Of a DNA stretch of 35,162 bases, positions 1-6,933 are shown piece after piece. The DNA lies in IMG/VR virus record IMGVR_UViG_2859810971_000008, positions 1 through 35,162 of that record. The stretch is one strand, 5' to 3'. The position numbers and the translations under genes were made by a program. Position 1 is the first letter of the stretch, and the number at the start of each line of letters is the position of its first letter. Under the pieces are notes generated by a model. That model had not been told where the DNA came from and made no database searches. It saw only the letters and a list, made by a program, of their open reading frames with translations. This DNA comes from a virus. Lineage: Duplodnaviria > Heunggongvirae > Uroviricota > Caudoviricetes.

Positions 1-1158
1 ATGCTCACCGTTAAGCAGATTGAAGCAGCAAAGCCGAAAGAAAAACCATACCGCCTTCTCGATGGTAATGGCCTGTACCTTTATGTCCCTGTATCAGGGA
101 AAAAGGTATGGCAGCTTCGCTACAAGATTGACGGTAAGGAAAAAATACTGACCGTAGGAAAATATCCACTAATGACTTTGCAGGAGACAAGAGATAAAGC
201 ATGGACCGCGAGGAAAGACATCTCGGTTGGCATCGATCCGGTAAAGGCGAAAAAGGCTTCGTCTAACAACAATTCCTTTAGTGCGATTTACAAGGAATGG
301 TACGAGCACAAGAAGCAAGTATGGTCAGTAGGGTATGCGACTGAACTTGCAAAAATGTTTGATGACGACATTTTACCTATCATCGGCGGCCTTGAAATTC
401 AGGATATTGAGCCGATGCAACTGCTGGAAGTAATCCGCAGATTTGAAGATCGCGGTGCAATGGAGCGAGCCAACAAAGCACGCAGAAGATGCGGAGAGGT
501 TTTCCGTTACGCTATTGTCACCGGAAGGGCTAAATATAACCCGGCACCTGACCTTGCTGACGCCATGAAGGGATACCGCAAGAAGAACTTCCCGTTTCTT
601 CCTGCAGACCAGATCCCGGCATTCAACAAAGCACTGGCAACATTTTCAGGAAGTATCGTATCGCTCATTGCGACCAAAGTTTTACGCTACACAGCCCTAA
701 GAACGAAAGAGCTTCGTTCCATGCAATGGAAGAACGTCGATTTTGAAAACAGGATTATCACTATCGACGCCAGTGTGATGAAGGGACGCAAGATTCATGT
801 TGTCCCGATGTCGGACCAGGTGGTTGAACTTCTCACTACGCTAATCTCCATCACCAAACCAGTATCAGAGTTTGTTTTTGCCGGGCGTAACGATAAGAAG
901 AAGCCAATCTGCGAGAACGCGGTATTGCTTGTGATCAAACAAATCGGCTATGAGGGTCTGGAAAGCGGTCACGGATTCAGGCATGAATTCAGCACGATTA
1001 TGAACGAGCACGAATGGCCCGCTGATGCTATTGAAGTGCAACTGGCACATGCCAACGGCGGATCTGTGCGCGGTATTTACAACCATGCTCAGTATCTCGA
1101 TAAGCGCAGAGAAATGATGCAGTGGTGGGCGGATTGGCTTGATGAAAAGGTGCTGTAA
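1..1158 (+). CDS. intS: Tyrosine recombinase/integrase, P4 (IntS)-type
   Basis: 385 aa ORF starting at nt 1; N-terminus MLTVKQIEAAKPKEKPYRLLDGNGLYLYV typical of P4-family integrases, C-terminal catalytic region with conserved R..H..R..Y spacing (HGFRHEF...VRGIYNHAQY). Recalled as near-identical to KplE1/CPS-53 IntS, unverified. Confidence 0.9.
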   Translation: MLTVKQIEAAKPKEKPYRLLDGNGLYLYVPVSGKKVWQLRYKIDGKEKILTVGKYPLMTLQETRDKAWTARKDISVGIDPVKAKKASSNNNSFSAIYKEWYEHKKQVWSVGYATELAKMFDDDILPIIGGLEIQDIEPMQLLEVIRRFEDRGAMERANKARRRCGEVFRYAIVTGRAKYNPAPDLADAMKGYRKKNFPFLPADQIPAFNKALATFSGSIVSLIATKVLRYTALRTKELRSMQWKNVDFENRIITIDASVMKGRKIHVVPMSDQVVELLTTLISITKPVSEFVFAGRNDKKKPICENAVLLVIKQIGYEGLESGHGFRHEFSTIMNEHEWPADAIEVQLAHANGGSVRGIYNHAQYLDKRREMMQWWADWLDEKVL

Positions 1159-1514
1159 TCCTCATATCCAACCTAAGAGATATGCACAATTTTGTGAATA
1201 AGATATTGAGAATTAGCGAAAAGTTTTATTTTGCGTATCATCAATTCAGAATACAAAGTTACATGCTAATGTTCTGCATTGGTATCTTTTGCTTATCCAT
1301 GTCTACATTATCGCCAAAAAAATAGGTTTTGTCTATCAATTATTTGAATTACTTCCATGAAATTATAACGCACTTGTAATTTTTGATTATTTTTACCTCT
1401 CAAGTGTTTTGTTTCTTCTATCTCTTTGTATTTTTAGCGAAAGTATGCCATATTGCATTCTAATATAACGTGGCGTTGTTTCTGTTTAATGATTTAAATA
1501 GTTCAACATAATAT

Positions 1515-2690
1515 TTGCTAACAAATTATATCCAAGCAAATCATATGATATTATCATTACAATATATTAGAGGAATAGCATCATTACTTGTTGTTTTATT
1601 CCACTTCAGATTCTTGCTAAATGAGCACTACTCTCAGAAAGATTTGGGTGACCTATTATTTGGGAATGGGCTGTCTGGAGTTGATATATTCTTCATATTA
1701 AGTGGATTTATCATCGTATACTCAACAAGAAAGAAGGAAGTTAATGATACTTTCTCATTCTCAATTAGAAGAATATTTAGAATATACCCATTACTAATCA
1801 CATGCTGTTGCATGTATTACATAATAAACACTCAATTTCTAACCTATGCTACAGTTGAAAACTTTAGAACCTTGCTTATTTCCATCATTCCATTAAATAT
1901 AAACTGGAATGAAGGTGCTCCATTCTTTGCCTATAATCTTTTGTACCCGGCCTGGACGATAACATATGAAATTGGTTTCTATGTTTTTTTCGGGGTATCA
2001 ATGTCTATTTCGCATAAATACAGAACAATTATCTGTTCTGTTTTTATAATCATGGTGGTCTCATTTACACAATACTATGTGAATGGAAATATATCATTTT
2101 CAGGTGATGTTAGTGCAGGGTTATTTACAGATAACTGGTTATTAGGATATACAAATGTTATTACATCTCCAATGATGTATGAATTCGTTATTGGGATGTT
2201 TCTTTCTGAAATATTTATAAACATCAACGAAAGCAAAAGTATTAAAAGGATACTTTCAAAGTATTCGCTTCAAATACTATGGATTTCATGTGGTATATCC
2301 ATAATATTATTCATTATCCAGCGACCTTATGGGCATGGATTGAATGGATTTGGGACTATGGCGATGATACTTATTGCATCATCATTAGTATATGAATACT
2401 GCAATATAACACCCAAAATAAAAATATTTAATTTCCTTGGTGAAATATCATATTCTTTATATCTAATTCACGCCGTGATACTTGCTTTGTTCTTCTATTA
2501 TAAGGCAGACCTTGCTGAAATTGGCATAACTGGTGGATTTTCTGTGTTTTTTTCCTTGGTTATTATCTCAATAACTGCATCATATCCAATATATATTCTC
2601 ATTGAAAAACCAATGATAAATATAGGCAAACGTTTAATTGACAAGAGAAATAAGAGCATTAATAAAAAAGAAACCGAAATAACAGCGTAA
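1515..2690 (+). CDS. Acyltransferase family 3 (AT3) integral membrane protein; putative O-antigen/LPS O-acetyltransferase (lysogenic conversion). Alternative start at 1545
   Basis: 391 aa, very hydrophobic with multiple predicted TM segments; N-terminal motif YIRGIASLLVVLFHF and SGVDIFFILSGFII typical of the Oac/OafA AT3 family; strongly AT-rich codon usage unlike the phage structural genes. Confidence 0.75.
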   Translation: MLTNYIQANHMILSLQYIRGIASLLVVLFHFRFLLNEHYSQKDLGDLLFGNGLSGVDIFFILSGFIIVYSTRKKEVNDTFSFSIRRIFRIYPLLITCCCMYYIINTQFLTYATVENFRTLLISIIPLNINWNEGAPFFAYNLLYPAWTITYEIGFYVFFGVSMSISHKYRTIICSVFIIMVVSFTQYYVNGNISFSGDVSAGLFTDNWLLGYTNVITSPMMYEFVIGMFLSEIFININESKSIKRILSKYSLQILWISCGISIILFIIQRPYGHGLNGFGTMAMILIASSLVYEYCNITPKIKIFNFLGEISYSLYLIHAVILALFFYYKADLAEIGITGGFSVFFSLVIISITASYPIYILIEKPMINIGKRLIDKRNKSINKKETEITA

Positions 2691-2704
2691 TAATGACAAA
2701 GTTA

Positions 2705-2729
2705 GTGCCGGATACCCCGGCACTTTTTA
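2705..2729 (+). terminator. Rho-independent terminator after the first AT3 gene
   Basis: GTGCCGG-ATACC-CCGGCAC hairpin followed by TTTTT immediately after the stop at 2688-2690. Confidence 0.5.
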
Positions 2730-4102
2730 ATCAATTTCGTAAGTGACAGTGATTATCACCTCTGCATTATTACCCAAAACATTTTGATATATATTCATAT
2801 TACCTGATAATGTAGTTGCTCCAGTAAGAGTTATATAACTACTATTTGCATCAACCCTTGGAAGTAAAGCGGTAACTGCTGTTGTTAAATTATTATAGTA
2901 GCCTGTACTTCCAACATATGCAGCTTTATTGCTTGATACATATGGTAACCCTCCAATTCTGAAACCATCTCCTGACCCAATTAAAGTTATACCAAGGTGA
3001 CATATTGCTGTTATGATATTGCCACTCCTGACATAATTTCCTTTCTGCTGATAATATGTGGCATTACCACCTACAGTCGGAATCCAAACTCCAGTTTCTA
3101 TATCACCACATGACCAGTCTTCTGCTGTTGTTAGTTTTCCAGTAACAATAAATTTACTTCCACCACCAGAATTATAAGGAACAAAAATTGGATTTATTCT
3201 TGCATAAGTGTTACCGGTCTGCTCATTAAGATCATTTCTATCAATAAGAACTTGACCATTTTCGAAGTTTGAAATCTGGCAGTCTGTTACACTCCAGTCT
3301 CTTAACTTCACATCAGCATCCATGACACCAATAAGCTTACCAGCATTACCAATTTTTTCTTTATGCATATTTACATACACATTTCTTACCGTAACAGACT
3401 GAGGGAACAGATAATTAGCAGGATTAGTTTTATCACTTAAAATAGATATTACCCAAGGTCTGTATTGAGTACTTACTTCACAATAAAATCCATCAATAAG
3501 CGTTCCAGATGCCGCTGGTCCAAGTAGTATTCCACCTGTAGAGTGATGCGCACTACCTCCAATTACTCTCCCCTTAACGCAGTTAATATAGGCAAAATAT
3601 CCTAAATCTTGATTGTCATAGGCTGACATAGCACAGTCTCTAACTGTTACTCGAGAATTTCCTCCGTCATAAGCTGAGCCATCAGTTTTCTTACCAACTA
3701 TTGATATAAAGTTACCAATAGCAACTCGACTATAAAAAGTTTTTTATAACACCCCTCAATTAAAATATCCCAGTTTTCAAACTGAGCATATATATCATAA
3801 GAGCTGGCATTCCCATAATCTATGAAATCACAACATCTTATTTTCGGCGTATAAACGGCACTTTTTATCTTTATACCACCTAATGCTCTCTCCCCACCTG
3901 TGAATCTAATGCCAGTAACGGTGTAATCGCCTTGATAGAAATTATCTGCGGTAGGATTATTTTCGTCAGAATCATCACCCAATATAATAGCAAATTCACT
4001 CCCTGAATAATTAATTGTCGCCCCCTTATTTGAATATATAGTTACAGGTCTTATAAACTCCAAAGAATTACTTATTAGATACTCTCCATAAGGAAAAAAA
4101 TC
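2727..4102 (-). pseudogene. Tailspike/tail-fibre-like receptor-binding protein remnant (beta-helix-like composition), frameshifted and lacking a start codon
   Basis: Two ORF fragments (3698..4063 and 2727..3629) in different frames; the lower frame stays open upstream to 3743, so the break is in the A/T run at 3735-3746. The upper fragment has only a TTG start and is open upstream to a stop at 4103-4105. Gly/Asn/Thr/Ser-rich repetitive sequence typical of tailspike beta-helices. AT-rich. Confidence 0.4.
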
Positions 4103-4455
4103 TCAACTGGTGGTGAGTACTTTGGTCTGGAGTTTACGTAATTCATAATATTGATTACACCAACATCATAGATAATCGCCACCTTCTGGCGAGGAGCTCC
4201 TGATGCAATTAATCGCCAGGCCTACGCCCATTATTCAGGGGTAAATTTTGGACGGAGCCCCCAATTCCATCCTCAATTCTCCCTCGCACTGAGGAGTAGT
4301 AAGTGCAATTATTTAAAAAATCGCAAACAGAATATTATCATTTATTCTTGCATTCTGTTAATTAAAACCACACATAAAAACGTTGATACTTGATAAGTAA
4401 GTAGAGTATTATTAATGGTTTTAATAACGAACCTTTTAATCATGAGAAGCCTCAA

Positions 4456-5481
4456 ATGACTAGTACCAATAACATAACAAGAAAAAAAATGGATGGAGTA
4501 ACAATCTTAAGATTTATAGCTGCTTTTTATGTGTTTATTTTTCACATTAACATGAGAGTCCCCGTTAATTTTGGAGAGCTTATTAATAAAACCATTAGCA
4601 ATGGCGTCATTGGCATGAGTATTTTCTTCATGCTTTCTGGTTTTGTTTTGACTTATAATTACTATGGTTCCTTGTCAAACAATTACTTCAGGAAGCGAAT
4701 AGCAAGAATATTTCCAGCCTATTTATTTTGTGGGCTTTTAACCCTCCCATTTTTGTTATCCAGCGATGCAAGCTTTTTAAAAATGATTGCAAGCATATTC
4801 TTGTTTGTTACTGGAATGCAATCATGGATTTATCAGACCTTCGATTTTTGGAATTTTAGCGGTACCTGGTCAATATCAGTGGAATTGTTTTTTTATGCCC
4901 TGTTTCCATTTTTGATAAAAAACATCAACAAAAACAATGTAATTTACGTTTTACTTTTTTCATATTTATCTTCAGCATTATTAATCCCATTATCTGATAT
5001 AATTCAGGGACCTGTAGTTTGGTCCGTATATTACGCAACTCCAATATACAGGTTACCAGAATTTGTGGTGGGCGTCTGTATCGCAATACTTTTTTTAAAT
5101 GGCTATCGTGTTAACCATTATACATGGCTATTAAGCATTTTATTATTTCTGTATGCTACCACCCAGCAAAACAATAACTCCATGGGGGTGAACTATCTCA
5201 CAATTCCTGCGATATCAATTATGTTATTGCACCTGGCAAAAATCAACATCAAAAACAATATTGCAAACAGAGCGATCATTTACTTTGGAGATATAAGTTA
5301 TTCGTTTTATTTGATGCAATTACCTATATTATATTACCTGGATCATAATAAAAACTCATTTATTCTTAACTATGGTCTTTTTAGCTGGCTTGTACTTTTT
5401 GTTATTAATACTGCAATGGCATCATTATCTTATCACTTTCTGGAGAAGAACGATAAAATCAGAAAAATAATCACATCCTGA
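4456..5481 (+). CDS. Acyltransferase family 3 (AT3) integral membrane protein; putative O-antigen O-acetyltransferase (Oac-like)
   Basis: 341 aa; motifs RFIAAFYVFIFH, FFMLSGFVLTY, multiple TM segments; size and motifs resemble phage-borne Oac-type O-acetylases; AT-rich. Confidence 0.8.
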   Translation: MTSTNNITRKKMDGVTILRFIAAFYVFIFHINMRVPVNFGELINKTISNGVIGMSIFFMLSGFVLTYNYYGSLSNNYFRKRIARIFPAYLFCGLLTLPFLLSSDASFLKMIASIFLFVTGMQSWIYQTFDFWNFSGTWSISVELFFYALFPFLIKNINKNNVIYVLLFSYLSSALLIPLSDIIQGPVVWSVYYATPIYRLPEFVVGVCIAILFLNGYRVNHYTWLLSILLFLYATTQQNNNSMGVNYLTIPAISIMLLHLAKINIKNNIANRAIIYFGDISYSFYLMQLPILYYLDHNKNSFILNYGLFSWLVLFVINTAMASLSYHFLEKNDKIRKIITS

Positions 5482-5482
5482 T

Positions 5483-5508
5483 TTATTAGGGGGACCTCCC
5501 CCTAATAA
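5483..5508. terminator. Perfect inverted-repeat hairpin between convergent genes (possible bidirectional terminator)
   Basis: TTATTAGGGGG-ACC-TCCCCCTAATAA: 11-bp perfect stem between the AT3 stop (5481) and the tfa stop (5523). No clear U-tract on either side. Confidence 0.35.
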
Positions 5509-5522
5509 TACACCACATAATT

Positions 5523-5933
5523 TCAACGTATTATCTCTGGTCTTTCAGGCCAGGTTATTTCTGGCACTAAAGATAAATCCACTGACATTAAACTATTAAC
5601 ATATTCCTTCCATAATAAAAGATTGCCCTTGTTATTTTCACTTATAATACCGAGTAACAAATCTGACTGCCAGTTCATAATTAAACTATTAGCACTATCC
5701 AGCAGACACTGTCTTTCATTCTCTGCCTCACGAAGTAATTCATCATGTGTTTTTGGCGGCTGCGTAGGTGACGAAAGCTTTCCCTTATCATAGAACCAAC
5801 CAATTCTTACATTATCGGATACAGGTATAACTAACGCATTAGTTGGTTGCCAGGCACTCTCACCATCCCATACAGCAATATTGGTAACAACACCATTTTC
5901 AATAACGGCATAGTTCATCATGCATACTCCCAA
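5523..5933 (-). CDS. Tail fibre assembly protein (Tfa family)
   Basis: 136 aa; N-terminus [19 protein letters not shown]... characteristic of lambda/Mu-type tail fibre assembly chaperones; directly downstream of the tail fibre gene. Confidence 0.8.
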   Translation of the reverse strand: MGVCMMNYAVIENGVVTNIAVWDGESAWQPTNALVIPVSDNVRIGWFYDKGKLSSPTQPPKTHDELLREAENERQCLLDSANSLIMNWQSDLLLGIISENNKGNLLLWKEYVNSLMSVDLSLVPEITWPERPEIIR

Positions 5934-6933
5934 ATGATTGCAATACCAGCCATTCCGCTACCTCCGGCACGCTGCTGCGTCGCTCCACCGTAAACACAGG
6001 CGCCACCGCCGCCGCCGCCATGGCCATTAGCATTAATACCTTCGCCTACAATGGCTTGCGACCCAGCCCCCGCACCAAGGATTGAATCGCCTCCAGGCCC
6101 ACCAATCGCCAGACTGCCAGAAAACCGAATGCCTGGTGAGTTATAACCACTTCCGGATCCGATAATATTGGCACCTGTAAATCCCGGTTCAGTATATGCC
6201 CCATACGGACCAACAACCCCAGGAGCAGTGCCTTCAGCAAGAACATTCCCACCAAGACCACCTTTGGCAATTATGGTATTGCCGAAAGAGGTTGCTCCCC
6301 CGGGAGCACCAACCGACGCACTTGCACCAGTGCCACCATATCCTATTGTCACAGTAGTTACGGTTGGATTATCCACGCGAGCTTTAACATACTCCCCGGA
6401 CATCCCCCGCCACCACAAGCAGCATTATTGGGATAACCGACCTGACAACCACCACCGGCCCCACCACCACCAACAATTTCAACAATAATAAATCTTGTGC
6501 CTTTTGTCGGAGTGTATGTACCTGAGCTTTTAAACACCTGACACTGTATAAGCCTCCCGGAGCCATCTCCCAAACCAAGATTTTCGAGAGCCGTTTTCAC
6601 CGTGCCGTCCGATTTAATATCACCAAACGGATTCTTGCGGCTCAGGTATTCAACAGCAAACCCCGATCCCAGCAATTCAACAAAACCGGGCAGATCACCA
6701 TTATCAAGCACATCCCGTTGCGTTTTATCACTTACAAACTGGGCCAGAGCTGCAGCAATAAAGCTGGCCTGCCGAATAACCTTATTGACTTGCGCACTGG
6801 AGGCTTTCCCTGCTGTAAATCCGGATAAAAGCGCGGGCAACGCTTCCCATTCCTCCTGCGATATAACATTGGCATTTCGATCCGTTGCAAACGCTTTAAA
6901 GTCATTTTTCGCCATCAGAGTAATACTCCCCAT
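5918..6933 (-). CDS. Tail fibre protein, glycine-rich; interrupted by a 1-nt frameshift (two ORF fragments 6358..6933 and 5918..6418)
   Basis: N-terminal fragment [33 protein letters not shown]... is a conserved tail-fibre N-terminus; the C-terminal fragment is Gly-rich. The frames join if the 5-C run at about 6404-6408 were 6 nt. Confidence 0.7.

Follow-up and report, generated by a model that had tools for sequence, protein, structure and literature searches.

A probable 3' remnant of a P22-family tailspike gene at a joint between podoviral and myoviral prophage blocks

What is a long, start-less reading frame doing between two acyltransferase genes at the end of a late operon? We interrogated this locus in a 35,162-nt stretch of tailed-phage DNA (IMG/VR record IMGVR_UViG_2859810971_000008), referred to throughout as the window. 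On the minus strand, the interval from a TGA at 4105-4103 to a TAA at 2729-2727 is free of stops save for one frame change, and a search for an ATG at the 5' end of this frame found none. In the list of open reading frames it appears as two pieces, 3698-4063 (121 aa, from a TTG) and 2727-3629 (300 aa). At the 36% G+C of this sequence a stop is expected once in about 13 codons (p=0.079 per codon), and the probability of 300 codons without a stop is ~2e-11, which puts the frame well outside what chance would give. An earlier, sequence-only reading had described a start-less frame that opens from the stop at 4103-4105, and the open reading frames and translation confirm it. That reading had also called the product rich in Gly, Asn, Thr and Ser, which broadly matches the composition of the repaired protein (G 11%, I 9.6%, N 8.1%, S 7.5%, T 7.5%), with isoleucine high as well. 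We conclude, with a probability of roughly 0.88, that the frame is the 3' part of a P22-family tailspike gene that no longer functions, left behind by illegitimate recombination between a podoviral and a myoviral element. We favor this reading because of two intact alleles of the gene, the alignment of the joint, the fold matches, the frameshifts and the relaxed constraint, each of which is described below.

The extent of the remnant was defined by comparison with the two intact alleles. One, carried by E. coli contig JABUWE010000073 (L017), shares 98.0% of its nucleotides with the remnant; the other, on an IMG/VR contig (L012), is 97.8% identical to the remnant and encodes a protein that reads MTDITANV...DGTNDDVGVINIMNYVNSRPKYSPPVEIFFPYGEYLISNSLEFIRPV... 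Tailspike homology runs 64 nt upstream of the TGA, up to 4169, across a second frameshift at 4094-4100. The span of 2727-4105 with a single 1-nt shift that had been proposed is thus correct at its 3' end and in the shift within the run at 3734-3745, whereas the 5' limit lies at 4169 and the frameshifts number two. The gene is not intact in the window, as its 5' end is absent and its frame is broken twice:

2727..4169, minus strand: tailspike gene remnant, codons ~171-648 and the stop of a 648-codon P22-family tailspike gene
4094..4100, minus strand: frameshift 1, a T7 run (coding strand) where L012 and L017 have T8; common to every remnant examined, E. coli B included
3740..3745, minus strand: frameshift 2, an A6 run (coding strand) against A7 in the intact alleles and the E. 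coli remnants; specific to the Shigella lineage of the window

The loss of one T (T8 to T7) creates the TGA at 4105-4103, which had been taken as the opening of the frame; against a more distant allele, the position of this frameshift within the T run cannot be assigned to the exact base.

P22-family tailspikes (P22 gp9, Sf6 gp14, HK620) are modular trimeric proteins that bind O-antigen. Searching 5.8 billion proteins with the repaired product, we found 41 relatives. The closest full-length homologue, P0002, is a 648-aa protein with 82% amino acid identity over 100% of the query (81% at the nucleotide level, in L003); it is named phage tailspike protein in one source and carries the Head_binding (PF09008) and pectate-lyase-like (PF12708) domains. 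Its gene is found in P22-like prophages, where it follows gp7, gp20, gp16 and mnt/arc and is convergent with an AT3-SGNH acyltransferase gene and a 385-aa integrase gene that adjoins argW and yfdC. In other relatives, the same C-terminal module sits behind different N-terminal adaptors (PF18668, PF27114 or PF25692). Pfam and PHROGs searches with the repaired remnant protein gave no match, PF09008 included, because the joint (codon ~171) falls inside the PF12708 match, which covers residues 153-248 of the intact tailspike protein. Head_binding is present in the intact alleles L012 (5.6e-66) and L017 and in P0002. When P0002 was searched against PDB sequences, its N-terminal head-binding part matched Sf6 gp14 (3.5e-73) and P22 gp9 (~1e-47); the match was confined to that part, and no sequence-level relative of the receptor-binding part was found among PDB entries. 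The intact alleles L012, L017 and P0002 resemble P22 gp9, Sf6 gp14 and HK620 in having an N-terminal head-binding domain followed by a right-handed beta-helix, and they resemble the P22 family in gene order, with a tailspike gene that ends the late operon, is convergent with an O-antigen-modification gene and lies beside int. In contrast, the window copy has neither residues 1-~170 nor a start codon, and its frame is shifted at two places. Its beta-helix receptor-binding and C-terminal domains are preserved, and the head-binding domain is gone.

Among isolated phages, the closest protein is the tail spike of Escherichia phage St11Ph5 (MG208881 / NC_070873), with 55% identity over 99% of the remnant. 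St11Ph5 is a G7C-like podovirus with a different virion adaptor and from a different phage family, so the same receptor-binding module sits on different N-terminal adaptors. An O5 strain served for its isolation, yet its infection is reported not to depend on O-antigen (PMC6393563). An identity of 55% is too low to take it that the two proteins recognise one receptor.

We then compared the product with known structures, using an AlphaFold2 model of P0001, a 445-aa E. coli protein that is 99% identical to the repaired remnant. The model is all-beta, with a pLDDT of 87.7. In a Foldseek comparison with the PDB, the best 49 matches are phage tailspikes, tail fibres or depolymerases, led by Det7 gp208 (1e-10) and followed by HK620, Sf6, P22, 9NA and CBA120 TSP2. 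The probability is 1.0 for Det7 gp208, HK620, Sf6 and CBA120 TSP2, yet the TM-scores of these matches are 0.3-0.4. On the strength of this modelled 445-aa version, the remnant is predicted to encode a right-handed parallel beta-helix receptor-binding domain. The tailspike-like character suggested earlier is thus borne out both by P0002 and by the tailspike and depolymerase matches of the model.

Is the fragment still used? Between the remnant and the intact alleles we counted 20-21 synonymous and 2-4 nonsynonymous changes, a divergence built up under selection. Within the remnant clade, 5 changes are synonymous and 8 nonsynonymous (Fisher p=0.002-0.009 against the intact-allele counts), although these clade counts are small (13 changes) and come from pairwise comparisons that partly depend on one another. 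The within-clade ratio of ~0.46 is still below 1. Judged from these counts, constraint is relaxed inside the clade, in agreement with decay.

An alternative is that the 445-codon reading frame has been domesticated and yields a free beta-helix product with an O-antigen-binding or O-antigen-cleaving function, which might cooperate with the two acyltransferases to remodel the surface or to exclude superinfecting phages. The frame is open in about 50 complete E. coli genomes, where the run has A7 and the frame is annotated from an internal TTG, and its protein is found on at least 1000 contigs; moreover, the P0001 model is folded with confidence without an N-terminal domain. P22 gp9 receptor-binding fragments from which the head-binding domain has been removed are known to remain stable and active (PMC4705272). 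However, the sole candidate start, the TTG annotated by PGAP for the 445-aa protein, reads as a Leu codon within the intact gene. A promoter scan of the region gave 25 matches against 25.2 expected in shuffled sequence; matches at this shuffled level lend the alternative no support and are uninformative on expression. The first rungs of the beta-helix are absent, constraint is relaxed within the remnant clade, and in Shigella the frame is broken again. Since the remnant copies are less than 1% diverged, the open frame may simply reflect youth; equally, an uninterrupted frame on so many contigs means that some residual use is conceivable. Taken together, we regard domestication as very improbable.

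Marginally less probable still is that the shift at 3740 is a sequencing or assembly error and that the gene is intact in the real genome. The frame breaks in the run at 3734-3745 (plus strand AAAAAGTTTTTT), where the window has T6 at 3740-3745 and relatives have T7. An artefact was suspected from comparison with L006, which is 97.5-98.5% identical to the window; over ~24 kb, eight single bases in or next to short base runs are missing from the window. E. coli relatives have A7 at this site, and four other 1-nt G/C-run deletions of the window (2710, 6404, 7678 and 9371) are missing from five independent sister assemblies that are 99.92-99.96% identical to it. These four are likely to be assembly artefacts in the source record. 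In contrast, all five sister assemblies that are free of them keep A6, including the Logan assembly of ERR200328, which is otherwise identical to the window; the 3740 shift is therefore not an assembly error. Across the loci compared, the run is A6 in L013-L016, L018 and L019 (L013, CP026810.1, is 100% identical to the window), whereas direct matching gives A7 in L001, L006 and L008-L012, and alignment gives it in L017. The 121-aa fragment produced by the A6 shift is called on 46 contigs and carries the name Shigella flexneri / Shigella, which also speaks against an artefact. Even with A7, the gene would be without its first ~170 codons and would carry the T7 frameshift.

We next traced the two sides of the remnant to their sources. 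L017, found by looking up the exact protein of the first acyltransferase, is 98.0% identical to and colinear with window 1-4169, and the homology stops exactly at 4169. Its gene order is fadL, mlaA, yfdC, tRNA-Arg(CCT) (argW), int (385 aa) and the identical 381-aa acyltransferase, followed on the opposite strand by an intact gene for a 648-aa Head_binding tailspike and then a gp16-related gene. The corresponding features of the window are:

1..1158, plus strand: tyrosine integrase (385 aa, IntS/P4-type) of the P22-like block, 98% identical in nucleotides to int of L017
1545..2690, plus strand: acyltransferase 1 (AT3, 381 aa) of the P22-like block, PF01757 at 3e-30, with an identical protein in L017
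2704..2724, no strand assigned: terminator-like GC-rich hairpin followed by a T-run, in the gap where the acyltransferase 1 gene and the tailspike remnant converge

The window int is also 97% identical in nucleotides to int of the argW P22-like prophages L003 and L005. Within the hairpin region, the window has a 1-nt deletion in a G-run (2710) relative to all of its relatives. On the downstream side of the remnant, the AT3 and int genes are conserved at 98% identity to L017. On the upstream side, gp7, gp20 and gp16 (seen in L003; gp16 in L017) are replaced by an invertase pseudogene and myoviral tail genes. The proposal that a P22-like right end lies at this site is supported by the colinearity with L017.

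The other side of the remnant has a different source. Window 4156-6100 is 98.7% identical to L007 (E. coli AR_0013), which is without the tailspike remnant. L007 carries a Mu/e14-type tail (stfP, ymfQ, baseplate J), followed by the same tail-fibre assembly gene and acyltransferase 2 as in the window and by an invertase pseudogene that is 5'-truncated with a complete 3' end. The features of this side of the window are:

4157..4169, minus strand: recombination joint, microhomology ATGATGTTGGT(GT) from a three-way alignment
4157..4267, minus strand: DNA-invertase (Gin/Pin-type) pseudogene fragment, codons ~135-172, C-terminal HTH only
4456..5481, plus strand: acyltransferase 2 (AT3, 341 aa) of the myoviral block, PF01757 at 4e-27, linked in L007 to the tail-fibre assembly gene and the invertase pseudogene
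5523..5933, minus strand: tail-fibre assembly gene, with which the intact late genes of the contractile-tail module end (Caudo_TAP / tail fiber assembly annotations)

Beyond these, the minus strand of the window encodes the glycine-rich tail fibre, baseplate, sheath, tube and head genes of a lambdoid myovirus. The suggestion that a contractile-tail module had been recombined in with its own AT3 gene agrees with this match to L007.

The sequence-only reading had further likened the position of the frame to the place where P22-like podoviruses carry a tailspike followed by oac/gtr. Both acyltransferases carry the Acyl_transf_3 membrane domain (PF01757, at the e-values given above), but the one adjoining the remnant is not close to Sf6 oac. 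In tblastn searches with both acyltransferases, the proteins found are 24-40% identical, the best phage matches are uncharacterised proteins with 28-40% identity, and no Oac- or OacB-carrying phage was found; neither protein can therefore be equated with Sf6 oac, oacB, oacC or oacD. A DNA search of INPHARED phages with the remnant and both acyltransferase regions returned nothing but the invertase fragment.

The immediate upstream partner of the remnant is this DNA-invertase pseudogene, which was absent from the first reading. The 111-nt fragment (4157-4267) aligns at 87.5% identity with nt 404-515 of an invertase gene of 555 nt in phage vB_EcoM-689R6 and shows a weak HTH_7 match; E. coli records annotate it as a pseudogene that is incomplete and has an internal stop. 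As nt 404-515 of 555 alone remain, the N-terminal resolvase catalytic domain with its active-site serine is absent. The fragment resembles Gin, Pin and Cin of Mu, e14 and P1 in lying at the usual place just past the tail-fibre assembly gene; it differs from those systems in that the HTH-coding part alone is left, and the crossover sites and invertible segment are absent.

The joint itself can be read in a three-way alignment, in which the window follows the invertase parent to ...ATCTATGATGTTGGT and the tailspike parent from ATGATGTTGGTGTAATCAAT... The shared stretch, ATGATGTTGGT(GT), encodes I-Y-D-V-G in the invertase (codons ~168-172) and D-D-V-G-V in the tailspike (codons ~169-173), and the remnant begins at tailspike codon ~171. 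The microhomology measures 11 nt against L007 and 13 nt against the phage invertase (window 4169-4157). This overlap of the two parents points to one illegitimate recombination event, for which the invertase fragment would have served only as a substrate. All copies examined have the same joint and the same T7 frameshift, and they therefore go back to a single such event.

Invertible-segment systems such as Gin/G of Mu regularly contain variable tail-fibre exons without a start, and with an invertase gene fragment directly upstream, the remnant could be read as a start-less alternative tail-fibre exon of an invertible segment (Mu G, P1 C, e14 P) that the neighbouring invertase flips; this is effectively ruled out, since invertase codons ~135-172 alone remain and the catalytic domain is lost, no inverted repeat of at least 14 nt links 4100-4300 with the tail-fibre genes, the fragment lies on the late-operon strand, the missing 5' part is the P22 head-binding domain in two intact alleles rather than a tail-fibre constant region, and the invertase and tailspike sides have separate parents.

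Direct observation covers the relationships among these loci, the joint, both frameshifts and the relaxation of constraint, and the parents L017 and L007 together with the joint support the proposal that the frame is a fossil of a P22-like right end joined to a contractile-tail module. We infer that the fragment is not expressed and that events followed one another in this sequence. First, an AT3 moron would have truncated an invertase gene within a myoviral tail end. The resulting lambdoid myoviral (pro)phage, whose late operon would have ended in tail fibre, assembly gene, acyltransferase 2 and 5'-truncated invertase pseudogene, would then have recombined illegitimately with an argW-integrating P22-like (pro)phage, with the crossover in ATGATGTTGGT(GT). 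The hybrid would have retained the myoviral virion genes and gained a podoviral right end consisting of the last ~478 tailspike codons, acyltransferase 1, an IntS-type integrase and the attachment site. Without a head-binding domain, promoter or start codon, the tailspike fragment was probably dead on arrival and has presumably been decaying since. The change from T8 to T7 would have come next, in the ancestor of all copies examined, after which the lineages may have split, E. coli exchanging att/int for a lambda-type version and Shigella going from A7 to A6.

The copy in E. coli B (REL606/BL21), annotated as WP_000394418.1 (ECB_RS03940), is this remnant too, with an identical joint and the T7 frameshift. 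It is 99.4% identical in nucleotides across the remnant and 99.2% across window 2600-4460, and both acyltransferase genes and the invertase pseudogene flank it as in the window. It differs from the window in having A7, so that the 445-codon reading frame is annotated as a hypothetical protein, and the defective prophage that carries it sits at att-lambda beside ybhB, with a lambda-type attachment arm. The att-lambda placement, with the lambda core TTAGTATAAAAAAGC and arm, is seen in REL606, BL21, NRZ14408 and others. In the E. coli copies the IntS-type integrase gene is cut to its last 84 nt (window 1075-1158), whereas it is complete in the genome of the window, where the prophage occupies a site in yihU. 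Among 5426 complete E. coli genomes, the remnant is present in 51, acyltransferase 2 with the tail-fibre assembly gene in 66, and an intact P0002-like tailspike in 3. Literature searches for an earlier description of the remnant found nothing relevant.

Tailed-phage genomes are mosaics, and tailspike receptor-binding modules move between adaptors; the present case is ordinary phage mosaicism and its value is descriptive. With both the podovirus and the myovirus parent recovered at 98% or more and the crossover pinned to 11-13 nt, it offers a clean example of natural illegitimate recombination. The staged decay, from the joint through T8 to T7, A7 to A6 and the erosion of the integrase in E. 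coli, provides a relative timeline across this E. coli and Shigella prophage family. For annotation, the "hypothetical protein" of BL21, REL606, about 50 other complete E. coli genomes and Shigella can be relabelled as a 5'-truncated P22-type tailspike pseudogene. Annotators should also beware that the source record appears to carry several undercalls in G/C homopolymers that break essential virion genes.

One feature of the alignments bears on what such fragments may do for the phages around them. Between the P0002 gene and the remnant, the flanks are 60-78% identical, whereas window ~3610-3075 is 98-100% identical. Across this central 536-nt patch (window 3612-3077), P0002 has 5 mismatches to the remnant alleles and 19-20 to the intact L012 and L017, and a recent exchange has therefore linked a functional tailspike with the allele type of the remnant. 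That incoming P22-like phages draw receptor-binding sequence from the widespread chromosomal remnant as from a permanent source seems unlikely to us, and expression of the 445-codon version as a free O-antigen-binding protein is less likely than that. If the remnant itself, and not its functional ancestor, was the donor, dead prophage tailspike fragments would be a reservoir for the evolution of host range.

The dead tailspike remnant (window 2727-4169, minus strand) shares a short patch with a functional tailspike gene. Over 536 nt, at window 3612-3077, it is 99% identical to P0002, the 648-aa tailspike allele of another P22-like prophage contig (L003 8001-9947), while the P0002 flanks outside this patch are just 60-78% identical to it. 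Within the patch, P0002 differs at 5 positions from the remnant alleles and at 19-20 from the intact parental alleles. Both AT3 acyltransferase genes (1545-2690 and 4456-5481) lie within an island of 27-38% G+C (window 1200-5800), compared with 44-55% in the sampled flanks. Neither acyltransferase has a close relative in the isolated-phage collection, where the best identities are 40% and 28-32%.

The same prophage family occupies att-lambda in E. coli NRZ14408 (L006) and in E. coli B REL606 (L001), where the joint reads as follows.

L006 19778-20084: lambda core and attachment arm abutting the 3' end of the IntS-type integrase gene
L001 4253-4560: the same arrangement

On the integrase side of this joint, 84 nt from the 3' end of the IntS-type gene remain (window 1075-1158). 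The junction between lambda arm and integrase is a second illegitimate joint, which turns the right end into a three-part mosaic. In the REL606 prophage a deletion has also removed most of the tail and head genes that would lie from the tail-fibre fragment to the portal region, and an annotated pseudogene stands at its border.

L001 9832-10590: pseudogene, "anti-CBASS Acb1 family"

The P22-like argW prophage with the intact parental tailspike (L017) encodes a 735-aa product (11295-13502) that matches both terminase and gp16 Pfam families, suggesting that the two genes were fused through an internal deletion; the "parent" prophage would thus be defective too.

Seven G/C homopolymers are one base short in the window, as in the identical CP026810.1: 2710, 6404, 7678, 9371, 18842, 21510 and 21943, the last three by comparison with the more distant L006 only. 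Sister assemblies that match the window elsewhere at 99.92-99.96% identity do not have the first four deletions. In the window these deletions split the glycine-rich tail fibre (5918-6933) and leave baseplate J with 394 instead of 399 aa and the spike with 188 instead of 250 aa. They are probably assembly undercalls rather than biology.

In the window's own genome (L013, CP026810.1), the prophage is located elsewhere than argW. Homology to the argW prophage begins at GGACACCA, the final bases of the L017 tRNA-Arg, and no tRNA is found upstream of this point in L013 6280-6460, adjoining window position 1. A truncated gene occupies the same region.

L013 6280-6460 region, just upstream of window position 1 and of GGACACCA: yihU-like coding sequence, 161 aa, NAD_binding_2

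The prophage thus looks, from this arrangement, to sit at a secondary site within yihU. If so, the acquired integrase was the one that the hybrid phage used.
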